Source of the DNA: Acidobacteriota bacterium
GTDB taxonomy: Bacteria; Chloroflexota; Dehalococcoidia; SM23-28-2
DNA: 26,687 nucleotides
Direction: 5' to 3'
NCBI GenBank assembly: GCA_048636435.1
Contig: JAIVWR010000001.1
Coordinates: forward strand, 1 to 26,687
The notes below the pieces were generated by a model. That model searched no databases and was not told the DNA's origin. It worked only from the letters and a program-made list of their open reading frames with translations. Shown here in pieces: positions 11,539 through 24,448 of this stretch (position 1 is the stretch's first letter; each line of letters starts with the position of its first letter). The translations under genes were made by a program, and so were the position numbers.

Positions 11539-11928
11539 CTACTGCTTCTTCTTCTCCTCCTCCTCCTCCTCTTCCTCCTCCACCAGCTCCAGCTGGGCCA
11601 TCCGGGCGCCATCGCCCTGACGCGGCCCCAGCTTGATGATGCGCGTATAGCCGCCGGGCCGACTGGCATAGCGAGGCCCCAGCTCATCGAAGATCTTCTT
11701 CACCACATCCTTGTCGCTCACGATGCGCAGGGCCCGTCGGCGGGCGTGAAGAGTTCCATGCCTGCCCAGCGTGATCACCTTCTCGGCGATGCTCCGCAGT
11801 TCCTTCGCCTTGGCCTCGGTGGTCACGATCTTCTCATGGCGTAGAAGATCGGTCACCTGGTTGCGAAACATAGCCAGACGATGGCTTGGGGAGCGACCCA
11901 GCCTGCGTCCGGCGATACGGTGCGCCAT
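11539..11928 (-). CDS. rplQ: 50S ribosomal protein L17 with an E9-KKKQ tail
   Basis: [46 protein letters not shown]. Confidence 0.98.
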
Positions 11929-11934
11929 GTCGGC

Positions 11935-13230
11935 CTAGCCCTCGCTCTCCTCGCTGACCTCTTCCTTCAGCTTTTGCAGCATCCGCTGCCACTCGGCCAG
12001 CTCTTCGCCCTCTTCTTTAGCCGCAGGCGCTGGCTCTTCCGCCTTGGCCTTAGCCTTAGCCTTAGCCTTAGGCTTGGCCTTGGCCTCGGCCTCCTCTCCC
12101 TCAGCCGGCGCGGCCACCGCCTCCTCAGCAGGCGCTGGCGCCGCCACCTCGGCCGCTTCCGGCAGCGCTGCCTCTTCGACGACCACCACTGGCTCCGCCG
12201 CTACAGCCGCTGCCTCCTCGCCACGACCGACCACTGCCGGCAGCCCTTCCTCCTCGATCACCGAGGGGACCTCGACCGGCACTTCCTCCTCCACCGTCTC
12301 CTCGGGCAGGAAGTCTAGCTCCCGCAGGCGCGTCTTGAGCTCATCGTAGGACTTGCGGCCGAAGTTGCGTAGGGCGAGAAGTTCGTCCTCGCTCTTCTCC
12401 AGCACCTCACCCACCGTCATCAGCCCGCTGCGCTTCAGGCAGTTGTAGGCCCGCACCGACAGACTGAGGTCCTCAATGGCCGTGTTGTAGCGGTCGGCCG
12501 TTAGGACCGTGCCCGCACCCAGACCGTGTTCCACCACCGGCGGCGCCGGCTTGCCCAACTGACTGAACGGGGAGAGCTGCTCCAAAAGGATATCGGCACT
12601 CTGGCTCATGGCGTCCACGCCGGTGATGGTTCCGTCCGTCCACGCCTCCAGCACCAGGCGGTCATAGTTGCTGATCTGGCCCACGCGGGTGCGCTCCACC
12701 CTATAGTTCACCTTGCGCACCGGCGTGAAAATGGCGTCCACCGGGATTACCCCGATGGCCAGTTCATCGCTCGCCCCCGCCGGGACGTAGCCATGGCCCT
12801 GCTCCACGTTGAACTCCACCCTCAGCTCCCCCTCCGCCGAATCCAGCGTGGCCAGGTGCAGCTCAGGGTTGAGGATCTCATAGTCCGGCGGAACTTGGAT
12901 GTCGGCGGCGGTTATTCCCCCTTCACGACCGCTCACCTCCAGCAGCAGCGTGCCCGGCTGGTCGGACAGAGCCCGCAGCCGCAGCTCCTTCACGTTCAGG
13001 AGGAACTCGATGGTGTCCTCCTTCATGTGAGGAATGGTAGAGAACTCGTGCTGTATGCCGTCGATGCGCACCGAGGTAATTGCAGCGCCCAGCAGAGAGC
13101 TGAGAAGAACCCTCCTCAAGGAATTGCCCACGGTGGTGCCGAAGCCCGGCTCCAGAGGCTCGGCGACGATGCACACATAGTTGTCGTCGCTCTCCACAAT
13201 CTCAATCTGGGGAACGACCAATTGGGTCAC
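11935..13230 (-). CDS. rpoA: RNA polymerase subunit alpha with a 123-aa acidic C-terminal extension
   Basis: EPLEPGFGTTVGNSLRRVLLSS, DAIFTPVRKVNY, alphaCTD IEDLSLSVRAYNCLKRSG..NFGRKS. GTG start at 13230 with SD GAGGAGG. Confidence 0.97.
   Translation of the reverse strand: MTQLVVPQIEIVESDDNYVCIVAEPLEPGFGTTVGNSLRRVLLSSLLGAAITSVRIDGIQHEFSTIPHMKEDTIEFLLNVKELRLRALSDQPGTLLLEVSGREGGITAADIQVPPDYEILNPELHLATLDSAEGELRVEFNVEQGHGYVPAGASDELAIGVIPVDAIFTPVRKVNYRVERTRVGQISNYDRLVLEAWTDGTITGVDAMSQSADILLEQLSPFSQLGKPAPPVVEHGLGAGTVLTADRYNTAIEDLSLSVRAYNCLKRSGLMTVGEVLEKSEDELLALRNFGRKSYDELKTRLRELDFLPEETVEEEVPVEVPSVIEEEGLPAVVGRGEEAAAVAAEPVVVVEEAALPEAAEVAAPAPAEEAVAAPAEGEEAEAKAKPKAKAKAKAKAEEPAPAAKEEGEELAEWQRMLQKLKEEVSEESEG
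12040..12081 (-). repeat. 6-nt microsatellite encoding KAKPKAKAKAKAKA in the RpoA tail
   Basis: (AAGGCT/AAGGCC)n on the minus strand; TTAGCC repeats visible on the plus strand. Confidence 0.85.
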
Positions 13231-13266
13231 AGAGACCCACCTCCTCACTCTGGCAACAAGCGGTTG

Positions 13267-21571: not shown

Positions 21572-21940
21572 CTACACCACTTCCGGTGCCAGGGACACGA
21601 TCTTCATGAAGTTCTTCTCCCGCAGCTCGCGAGCCACCGGCCCGAAGATGCGCGTGCCCCTCGGATTCAAGTCGTCGGTCAGGATGACAGCCGCGTTCTC
21701 ATCGAAGCGGATGTGGCTGCCATCCGGCCGGCCGTACCCCTTGGCCACCCTCACCACCACCGCTCTGACCACCTCGCCCTTCTTCACTGAGGAGCCAGGG
21801 ACAGCCTGCTTGATCGTACCCACGAAAACGTCGCCCACGCGGGCATACCGACGGCGTGTGCCACCCAGCACCCGAATGCACATGATCTGGCGGGCGCCGG
21901 TGTTGTCGGCCACCTTGAGGCGCGTAGACGACTGGATCAT
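21572..21940 (-). CDS. rplN: 50S ribosomal protein L14
   Basis: [47 protein letters not shown] overlap with the rpsQ stop. Confidence 0.98.
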
Positions 21941-22761
21941 GATTCCTGCGTTTCTTCCTTCTCAGACTGCTCTTCCTCTTCAGCCTTCGATTGGTCTTCC
22001 TCTGCCGGCGGCTGCTCTTCCTCCGCGGCCTCCGGCGCCTTCTCCTCTGCCGGCGGCTGCTCTTCCTCCGCGACCTCAGCCTTCTCCTCTGCCGGCGGCT
22101 GCTCCTCTTCCGCGGCCTCCGGCGCCTCTTCCTCTGCCGGCGGCTGCTCTTCCTCCGCGGCCTCCGGCGTCTCTTCCTCTGCCGGCGGCTGCTCTTCCTC
22201 CGCGGCCTCAGGCGTCTCTTCCTCTGCCGGCGGCTGCTCCTCTTCCGCCGCCTCCGGCGCCTCTTCCTCTGCCGGCGCCTCCTCCTCAGCCACCGCTGGC
22301 ACCTCCTCGGCCACTGCCTCCTCCTCCGCTGGTGCCGCCTCTTCCTCAGCCACCGCTGGCACCTCCTCGGCCACTGCCTCCTCCTTCGCTCGTGCCGCCT
22401 TTTCCTCCGCCGCCGCGGCTTCAGCAGCTATCGCCTCGTCCAGTTCCCTCACCTCCTCAGCCACCTCTTCCTCGATGATTGCCTTCTCCTCCTCGGGCAG
22501 GGCAGCGGTCGTCAGGATCTCGGCCACCTGCCAGCGCTTGTCCCGCGATAGGGGCCGCGTCTCCACGATGAGCACCTTATCGCCCACCCGACAGGCGTTC
22601 TCCTCGTCGTGCGCCTTGTAGCGCGTCACCCGCCGCATGATCTTCTTGTACAAACGATGCCGCTTGAGGGACCCAACTGCCACCACCACCGTCTTCGACA
22701 TCTTGTCTCTGACTACCACCCCCACACGGGTCTTCTGGCGACCGTGGCTGACTTTCGCCAT
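21937..22761 (-). CDS. rpsQ: 30S ribosomal protein S17 with a ~187-aa acidic tandem-repeat C-terminal extension
   Basis: Residues 1-87 are canonical S17 (G.VV.DKM.KTVVV, H..YKK, YKAHDE.N, GD.V.I.ETRPLS..KRW); the rest is E/A/P-rich repeat up to the stop overlapping the rplN start. Confidence 0.96.
21994..22260 (-). repeat. In-frame 45-nt tandem repeat, 6 copies (one 42 nt), unit (A/T)[13 protein letters not shown](E/K/D)
   Basis: S17 residues 168-256; near-identical DNA units (TCTGCCGGCGGCTGCTC recurs on the plus strand). Confidence 0.95.
22267..22383 (-). repeat. In-frame 60/57-nt duplication, unit [16 protein letters not shown](A)PAE
   Basis: S17 residues 127-165; two near-identical DNA copies. 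Confidence 0.9.
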
Positions 22762-23427: not shown

Positions 23428-24108
23428 TCACTCCCCAGCGCTCGGCGAGGGGGATTCCTCCTCTTCTGCTCGTTCCTTGGCCTCGGGCACAATATCGCCC
23501 TTATAAATCCAAACCTTGACGCCAATACGGCCGAGCGCGGTGTGGGCCTCCGCGGTGCCGTAGTCGATGTCCGCTTTCAGGGTGTGCAAAGGCACTCGCC
23601 CCACCATCTCCGTGTCCGTGCGCGACATTTCCCTGCCGCCCAGACGCCCCGCCACCTTGATCTTGATGCCCTCGACCCCCCGTTGCATTGTTCGGGCCAC
23701 CGTTTGCTTCATCGCCCGCCGATGCGACACTCGCCGCTCCAGTTGATCTGCCACCGCCCTGGCCACCAGGGTAGCGTCCATCTCCGGCATGCGGATCTCG
23801 ACGATGTTCACCCGCATGCGCCGACCGCTCAGCCCCTCCAGCTCCTTGCGCACCTCGTCCACCCGCTGGCCGCCGCGGCCGATCACGATGCCCGGCCGCG
23901 CCGTGTGAATGGTCACCGTCACCTGGTTAGCGTTGCGGTCGATCTCCACATTGGACACGCCAGCATCGACCAGCATTCGACTGAGCACCTTCCGGATAGT
24001 CAGATCCTCGTGCAGGAGAGCGGTGTAGGTCTTCTCGGCGAACCACCTGCTCTTCCAGCCGTACAGATAGCCGAGGCGAAAGCCGTGGGGGTGAACCTTC
24101 TGACCCAT
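23428..24108 (-). CDS. rpsC: 30S ribosomal protein S3
   Basis: [61 protein letters not shown]. Start ATG 24108 with SD GGAGG. Confidence 0.98.
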
Positions 24109-24109
24109 G

Positions 24110-24448
24110 CTAGCCTCCAACCTCCTCTACTACAATCGTAACGTGGCTGCGTCGCTTCAGGATGGGAGATGCCCGGCCGCGGGCGCGCGCCCGCCATCGC
24201 TTCACCACCGGCGCATCGCCAGCATAGGCAGCGATGACTCGCAGGTAACGCGGGTCTATCTGGTAGTTGTTCTCGGCGTTCGCTACCGCCGACCGCACCA
24301 CCTTGGCCACCACCCTGGCATGAGGTGACGGCAAGTGGCGCAGACGGGCCAGAATCTCGGTCGTGCTCCTGCCCGGCAACTGCTCGAGGACAAGCCGTAT
24401 CTTCTTAGGCGATACGGCCACGTTCCTGGCTACGGCTCTCACCTGCAT
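24110..24448 (-). CDS. rplV: 50S ribosomal protein L22
   Basis: [38 protein letters not shown]. Confidence 0.97.

Follow-up and report, generated by a model that had tools for sequence, protein, structure and literature searches.

A predicted disordered arm with a conserved tryptophan helix at the C-terminus of the RNA polymerase alpha subunit in an order of Dehalococcoidia

The window, by which we mean the whole stretch of 26,687 nucleotides analysed here (contig JAIVWR010000001.1 of assembly GCA_048636435.1), comes from a bacterium of the order SM23-28-2 in the class Dehalococcoidia of the Chloroflexota. It carries, on its reverse strand, rpoA, the gene for the alpha subunit of RNA polymerase. 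The C-terminal domain of this subunit (alpha-CTD) is the classic end of alpha and its main contact for upstream DNA and activators. Here the protein continues for 123 residues after this domain, and, on sequence comparison and structure prediction, the additional tail is a lineage-specific, predicted intrinsically disordered C-terminal arm on each alpha subunit. The rpoA open reading frame (ORF) gives 437 amino acids (aa) from the listed GTG, the TAG stop being included in its coordinates, and residues are numbered below in this form. The probable true start lies 6 codons downstream of the GTG, at 13230, where the homologues begin (431 aa, P0001). The parts of the gene and the gene next to it are as follows.

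11935-13248, (-) strand: rpoA coding sequence, 437 aa (Pfam, ORF list).
12574-13161, (-) strand: alpha N-terminal domain (dimerisation plus insert), residues about 30-225 (PF01193, PF01000; AlphaFold2 predicted local distance difference test, pLDDT, 80-90).
12307-12495, (-) strand: alpha-CTD, residues 252-314 (PF03118; alignment to solved alpha-CTDs).
11938-12306, (-) strand: 123-aa tail, residues 315-437 (predicted disordered; net charge -22).
12223-12273, (-) strand: conserved motif 1, EVPSVIEEEGLPAVVGR, residues 326-342 (alignment A1, regular expression, few indels).
12082-12222, (-) strand: variable Glu/Ala/Pro/Val spacer, residues 343-389 (ratio of non-synonymous to synonymous substitution rates, dN/dS; indels; length variation).
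12040-12081, (-) strand: Lys/Ala (KA) island, KAKPKAKAKAKAKA, residues 390-403 (hexanucleotide repeat, found with Tandem Repeats Finder, TRF).
12007-12039, (-) strand: short acidic/proline spacer EEPAPAAKEEG, residues 404-414 (sequence).
11947-12006, (-) strand: conserved terminal motif and predicted amphipathic helix, EELAEWQRMLQKLKEEVSEE, residues 415-434, with W at residue 420 (AlphaFold2, profile A2, column counts from 48 sequences, dN/dS).
11938-11955, (-) strand: acidic C-terminal end VSEESEG (sequence; overlaps the likely rplQ Shine-Dalgarno).
11539-11928, (-) strand: rplQ (L17), directly downstream of rpoA (ORF list).

By every defining feature the protein is an ordinary RpoA. Pfam recognizes only the three alpha domains, namely the N-terminal dimerisation domain (PF01193, 5.9e-20), its insert (PF01000, 9e-26) and the alpha-CTD (PF03118, E-value 5.8e-22, residues 252-310), and finds no further family; the alpha-CTD match stops at residue 310. 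In the alignment to solved alpha-CTDs the residues R..NCLK and G.KS, which make up the DNA-binding determinant in E. coli alpha, are kept, and the alpha subunits of the PDB can be aligned only up to about LRELDFLPEET. The tail begins after LRELDFL (residues 308-314) and is composed of E34, A30, V15, P12 and K10 among other residues, with D0 and W1. This agrees with the first-pass annotation, made from the letters and an ORF list, which had reported 123 residues after LRELDFL with 34 Glu, no Asp and a single Trp. That annotation had ended the protein at ...KEEV; six more residues (SEESEG) follow.

AlphaFold2, run with a 34-sequence alignment, predicts the N- and C-terminal domains confidently and leaves about 100 residues of the tail at pLDDT 30-40. 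A single helix is predicted within the tail, at residues 419-434 (413-428 in the model), with a pLDDT of about 81/66. The helical hydrophobic moment of EELAEWQRMLQKLKEEV (residues 415-431) is 0.52 versus 0.25 for shuffled sequences, 1.6% of which reach the observed value; both results bear out the amphipathic periodicity that had been noticed at the end of the tail. Among 48 distinct sequences, the hydrophobic positions of this terminal motif form an a/d-type stripe, the core of the motif has a charge of +1 to +3, and the helix is bordered on both sides by runs of Glu/Asp in 48/48.

To follow the tail across the order, we used 41 genomes from six families, all of them metagenome-assembled genomes (MAGs) of uncultured organisms. 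An extended alpha is present in 41/41, within stop-to-stop open frames of about 380-550 aa, and all named RpoA homologues belong to MAGs called 'Dehalococcoidia bacterium' or 'Chloroflexota bacterium', for example SM23_28_2 and bin98. The order shares one tail plan: an acidic start, motif 1 and an Ala/Glu/Pro spacer that varies, then in most cases a basic patch, followed by an acidic run, the W motif and an acidic end. Tails of this W type are 82-137 aa long and have a net charge of -8 to -30. The terminal motif reads [ED][ED]-[IMLV]-[PA]-[ED]-W-[KQ]-R-x-L-x-x-[LI]-[TK] in the 48 distinct sequences, where W and L(+4) occur in 48/48, R(+2) in 46/48 and L/I(+7) in 48/48, and where W stands 13-28 residues from the C-terminus. 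A profile built on the final ~30 residues (A2) gives one match per genome, at the RpoA C-terminus, in 36/41 genomes of the order (26-55 bits); the 5 genomes devoid of a match all belong to family f2, where the motif takes the divergent form EIDPRWAKLRELK. In one genome (G039, contigs C3 and C4) rpoA is present twice in full length, each time with the W motif at its end; the gene could have been duplicated, or the bin, with 4% contamination, could contain more than one strain.

Motif 1 is the second conserved zone of the tail. It has the form EVPSVIEEEGLPAVVGR in this genus and APPLEEGEGPI or ALPLDDEERPI elsewhere in the order, where it can be summarized as phi-P-[SP]-[LV]-acidic x3-4-x-P-phi...R. 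Its P at residue 331 in the 431-aa numbering of alignment A1 (337 in the 437-aa numbering) is nearly invariant, and a regular expression for the motif matches 92% of the W-type tails. This motif near the alpha-CTD, like the acidic tails on neighbouring ribosomal proteins described below, had been overlooked in the first-pass annotation.

The regions of the protein evolve at different rates in pairs from within the genus.

Folded domains (two): dN/dS 0.15; no indels.
Terminal helix: dN/dS 0.28; no indels.
Motif 1: dN/dS 0.33; almost no indels.
Spacer: dN/dS 0.40; about 17 indel columns per pair.

Since dS is similar in all of these regions, and since the ribosome-binding region of rplQ overlaps only the last few codons of rpoA, the constraint on the helix acts on the protein and not on the rplQ leader RNA. 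Indeed, the ATG of rplQ lies 6 nt beyond the rpoA stop (TAG, 11935-11937), and the last rpoA codons, GAG GAG AGC GAG GGC, likely contain its Shine-Dalgarno sequence, an overlap that may constrain the terminal E/G residues of RpoA. These results strongly imply that the tail is translated. A frameshift or an annotation artefact as the source of the tail is excluded. Of the objections that the first-pass annotation had raised against itself, those of an unconserved helix and of a frameshift are thus not upheld, and the comparison that it had proposed, between a conserved W-bearing helix and a varying linker, gave a positive answer in the orthologues, W, R and L being invariant or nearly so. Because the W helix is conserved order-wide while the linker varies, the tail can be described as a tethered module with a probable docking helix. 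This part of the original proposal stands; the part that saw a DNA-binding patch in the KA island finds little support.

The island itself is encoded by a GCCTTA/GCCTTG hexanucleotide repeat (TRF, period 6, 7.7 copies, 12041-12086). In congeners it is replaced at the same place by GAKAKAEE, AEARAEE or AEAEAEAEA, the K-to-E flips corresponding to AAG-to-GAG changes in a slippage-prone repeat. Other families of the order keep a basic patch, for instance PVGRKSRK or KKAKAKA, and some basic patch is common in the order. We rejected a likeness to the KA/PAKK tails of histone-H1-like proteins, considering that the island has only 14 residues in a chain of net charge -22 and is swapped or lost in congeners. 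A specific H1-like role in DNA binding is weakly supported, and a tunable charge patch inside a polyanion is a more economical reading of this element.

Within the genomes of the class that were searched, the terminal motif is specific not only to the order but also to RpoA. It was found in no other ORF of the window's own genome, and profile A2 had no second match below E 0.05 in the 41 genomes of the order. A search of 1.84 billion representative proteins with the motif returned 20 matches. Eight of them were read: five represent RpoA tails or C-terminal fragments, and the remainder comprises two repeat proteins of eukaryote-like character and a singleton membrane ORF. The other 12 are mostly 40-80 aa long and match at or near their C-terminal ends. 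The two repeat proteins, P0133 (a short JGI metagenome contig) and P0136 (an EukProt transcriptome), are disordered, Ser/Pro/Ala-rich and carry 4-6 repeats of [IV]P[ED]W[KR]RK(LLEKK), which may be a convergence with the alpha-tail motif on a basic amphipathic helix. The membrane ORF, P0131 (1349-bp Logan contig), has 248 aa with predicted membrane helices and ends in an alpha-tail end, EEGEEDMPEWKRKLMELTGEEGGR; its N-terminal part has no homologue in the 41 genomes, and it could be a chimeric contig or a rare motif transfer. A search of the ESM Atlas with the tail gave no usable match. On these results there is no sign of a hub addressed by several bacterial proteins.

Outside the order, about 283 genomes of the class, taken from its other orders, gave no match to profile A2. 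In other Dehalococcoidia orders the alpha subunits carry comparable tails at this position, again with an acidic spacer leading to a conserved amphipathic helix and then an acidic end, but these tails are shorter (45-84 aa) and differ in motif sequence: the helix is, for instance, [ED]L[SG]xLGAAL[IM]EALR (LGAALIEALR type, 41 distinct sequences) or GLAAQLPPELRRKLRRL (LPPELRRKLRRL type). When the helix alignments of the W type and the LGAALIEALR type were compared profile against profile, they showed no similarity (probability 0.3%), and a hand alignment of both helix types in one hydrophobic register is thereby unsupported. A further short motif, P-phi-G-R, is enriched in the W-type tails (24/50 versus 2.5 expected); it was dropped as a class-wide motif, only 5/41 tails of the other type carrying it. 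The small Dehalococcoides-like genomes (L162, L174, L176) have an alpha tail of about 30 aa with a Lys-rich patch and then an acidic end, e.g. KKPAKKKTKSKKNEEAEETAEE, and a basic patch after the alpha-CTD may be the older element in the class. In our phylum sample of 120 genomes, most of those read outside the class have alpha tails of only 9-30 residues. One genome of this sample (G358, locus L157) is unpublished; it adds one 'short tail' to the count, and none of our claims depends on it. Three loci from other Chloroflexota classes (L149, L150, L153) show strongly acidic tails of 68-124 aa ending in an Arg/Lys cluster (KSKKRRRR, RGRRARRKELRK, RPPRVSRRR), a different solution at the same position.

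The closest studied analogue of the tail, in kind and not by homology, is the delta subunit (RpoE) of Bacillus subtilis and other Firmicutes. In delta, the C-terminal region is a disordered polyanion (net charge -47) that contains the lysine tract 96-KAKKKKAKK-104, and transient contacts between this tract and the acidic part are important for its function (PMC7749165, PMC9674986). This region, which is tethered to the core polymerase, touches HelD and, in the main channel, competes with nucleic acids, both DNA and RNA (PMC7749165, PMC9674986). The alpha tail is likewise a polymerase-tethered, predicted disordered polyanion with a Lys/Ala tract. However, delta forms a subunit of its own, which a folded HARE-HTH domain anchors, whereas the tail continues the alpha chain beyond the alpha-CTD; the delta tail contains both Asp and Glu, whereas the alpha tail is Glu-only and has its lysine tract late in the chain and unconserved; and delta is devoid of the conserved terminal helix predicted here, the two having no sequence homology. 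As it contains no HARE-HTH domain, the tail does not belong to the delta family. A search for PF05066 in 5 genomes of the order, of which three are 90% or more complete, brought up no HARE-HTH/delta homologue.

Other systems share single elements with the tail. RbpA of Actinobacteria is a separate folded protein with a basic linker plus sigma-interacting helices. As in the alpha tail, a basic patch attached to the transcription machinery is followed by a C-terminal helical element, which is a docking element in RbpA and probably one here, though RbpA is an independent protein with no sequence similarity, a different spacing and a different acidic context. Region 1.1 of sigma-70, likewise an acidic element tethered to the polymerase, is believed to cover DNA-binding surfaces until it gives way to promoter DNA (discussed in PMC7749165). 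This region is located on sigma and includes a small folded domain, and the sigma factor of the present genome keeps an acidic N-terminus of its own. An extra amphipathic helix after the alpha-CTD of Helicobacter pylori has been described as part of that domain (Borin et al. 2014, cited in PMC4081817). As far as this citation describes it, the H. pylori helix is also a lineage-specific amphipathic helix beyond the canonical alpha-CTD, but with no disordered arm in between, whereas here about 100 predicted disordered residues separate the two. Bulk data document Ala/Glu/Lys-rich low-complexity regions for the ribosomal proteins of bacteria and D/E-rich regions of this type for subunits of the polymerase (Ntountoumi et al. 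2019, PMC6821194). The ribosomal-protein tails resemble the alpha tail in composition, terminal position and repeat-driven evolution, but no conserved, position-specific helix motif is reported at their ends (PMC6821194). Finally, EE-[IM]-P-[DE]-W recalls the tip of single-stranded DNA-binding proteins (D-D-D-I-P-F-COOH), yet W lies 13-28 residues from the end and starts a predicted helix; since the motif is internal, the tail is not a tip of this type.

The primary sigma factor of the genome was also considered (L178:1462-3048 (-), G000 contig C64). It has 528 aa, with a basic-then-acidic N-terminus of ~100 residues and an insertion of ~170 residues between regions 1.2 and 2.1, which is a possible docking platform. 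The idea that delta was replaced on account of a missing sigma region 1.1 is unsupported, this sigma keeping its own acidic N-terminus.

Any binding, its partner and an effect on transcription are inferred from this set of features. Our preferred reading, held tentatively and at somewhat less than even probability, is that of a disordered polyanionic arm whose helix docks on a protein surface while its spacer competes with non-specific nucleic acid. Such an arm would comprise four parts: an acidic/proline motif by the alpha-CTD, a fast-evolving Glu/Ala/Pro spacer, an optional basic island and a terminal helix ~15 residues from the end. The helix, E-E-phi-P-[DE]-W-[KQ]-R-x-L-x-x-L, could fold upon docking on the holoenzyme or on a transcription factor. 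Kept at a high local concentration, the spacer might compete for basic surfaces, among them the DNA-binding face of the alpha-CTD and the main channel, against non-specific nucleic acid. The net effect would be like that of the delta acidic tail or of sigma region 1.1, that is, a sharper promoter selectivity or a better recycling of the enzyme. By the same analogies, the suggestion that a DNA-mimicking acidic chain gates the access of promoters or factors is plausible.

Several observations weigh against this reading. No partner and no binding came from any of the computational tools applied. Since sigma already has an acidic N-terminal region, a function of the region-1.1 type is not obviously missing in this organism. 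The basic island, whose counterpart tunes compaction in delta, is not conserved even within the genus. The acidic ends of S17, L17 and S3 suggest that the polyanionic part may be a trait of the lineage and not a device specific to the polymerase. Furthermore, all genomes of the order are MAGs from uncultured organisms. A complex prediction with two alpha bodies (residues 1-308 of A1) and the last 47 residues scored 0.00; run without controls, it gives no verdict either way.

A possible, though rather unlikely, alternative is that the arm works by fly-casting. The helix would then be a short linear motif that captures a separate protein, such as a HelD-like recycling motor, NusA, CarD or, in an RbpA-like manner, the non-conserved region of sigma, with the basic island on DNA and the spacer serving as a leash. 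With its small size, terminal place, amphipathic character and disordered surroundings, the motif is built as recruitment motifs usually are, and the spacer tolerates indels and shifts in tail length from 82 to 137 aa, as a leash might. There is also a precedent in the direct binding of HelD by the delta tail (PMC7749165), and the sigma insertion between regions 1.2 and 2.1 could serve as the platform. On the other hand, the motif occurs on no other protein in the 41 genomes, which speaks against a multi-client hub.

The neighbouring genes raise another alternative. S17 (21937-22761, (-) strand) has 274 aa, 82 of them Glu, with a long C-terminal tail of 11-residue acidic-type repeats; L17 (11539-11928) ends in E9KKKQ; S3 (23428-24120) has an acidic C-terminal end. 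Acidic tails are a trait of the whole ribosomal-protein cluster. The alpha tail could be one instance of a general Glu-rich, disordered bristle borne by many abundant nucleic-acid-binding proteins of these bacteria, favouring solubility, preventing aggregation or forming a charge-balancing coat, in which the helix has a minor, non-specific role. Besides the three neighbours, the abundance of Ala/Glu-rich low-complexity regions in ribosomal proteins and the enrichment of D/E-rich ones in polymerase subunits (PMC6821194) are consistent with this proposal. However, it leaves unexplained two position-specific motifs, with invariant W, R and L across the order, as well as a helix that has no indels and a lower dN/dS than the spacer. 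Because of these two motifs the alpha tail stands apart from the other acidic tails, and we regard the bristle explanation as distinctly unlikely.

A more ambitious version of the docking model, to which we assign a similarly low probability, would make the tail a built-in regulatory subunit. The W helix would dock on the holoenzyme, e.g. on the non-conserved region of sigma, the beta flap or the clamp, and hold the polyanion near the DNA channel, so that two cis-acting gates per polymerase, comparable to delta or region 1.1, would govern how selectively promoters are chosen and how the enzyme recycles; the various Dehalococcoidia orders would have arrived at distinct helices for one shared socket. 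In a bolder variant, the helix would bind the Glu-rich tails of ribosomal proteins and physically couple the polymerase to ribosomes.

Binding of the helix to an anionic surface seems quite improbable. Here the basic amphipathic helix (W-K/Q-R-K/M-L-L-x-L) would bind nucleic acid or membrane, thus tethering the polymerase or sensing RNA/DNA. The basic core and the strong hydrophobic moment would fit, and the repeated [IV]P[ED]W[KR]RK units of P0133 and P0136 are arranged as in surface-binding repeats. Nevertheless, the Glu/Asp runs on both flanks of every helix would repel such a surface, and the LGAALIEALR helices of other orders have no basic residues on the equivalent face, although the homology of both types is unproven. 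As for a functionless tail, grown by neutral low-complexity expansion in a GC-rich genome, the repeat-encoded, indel-rich spacer and KA island with its K-to-E flips are in its favour, but the retention of the extension in 41/41 genomes, a dN/dS below 1 throughout and in-frame motifs at a steady distance from the C-terminus (W 13-28 residues from the end) largely refute it, making it highly improbable.

The tail belongs to a known kind, that of lineage-specific disordered extensions and tethered polyanions on polymerase. We found no literature on a post-CTD tail of alpha in the Chloroflexota, and to our knowledge there is almost no biochemistry of the polymerase of this phylum. A motif-bearing disordered arm kept by selection beyond the alpha-CTD would imply an unstudied layer of transcription control in the Chloroflexota. 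The invariant W-R-L helix offers a concrete handle, a peptide of ~15 residues, for finding the partner, and complete genomes of relatives could allow heterologous reconstitution of the enzyme. If the analogy with delta were true, the tail would be a case of convergent evolution, with tethered polyanions as a general way to keep polymerase off non-specific nucleic acid.

With regard to the surrounding genes, rpoA is preceded by three ORFs (127, 131 and 208 aa) and followed by one of 129 aa; it sits in an rpsM-rpsK-rpsD-rpoA-rplQ cluster, the identities of S13, S11, S4 and L17 being read from their sequences and not from a family search. Two antisense ORFs, at 11881-12318 (+) with 145 aa and at 12044-12349 (+) with 101 aa, overlap the tail. 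Their translations are rich in Leu/Ser/Ala/Gly, and they appear to be by-products of GC-rich, repeat-like codons and not genes.

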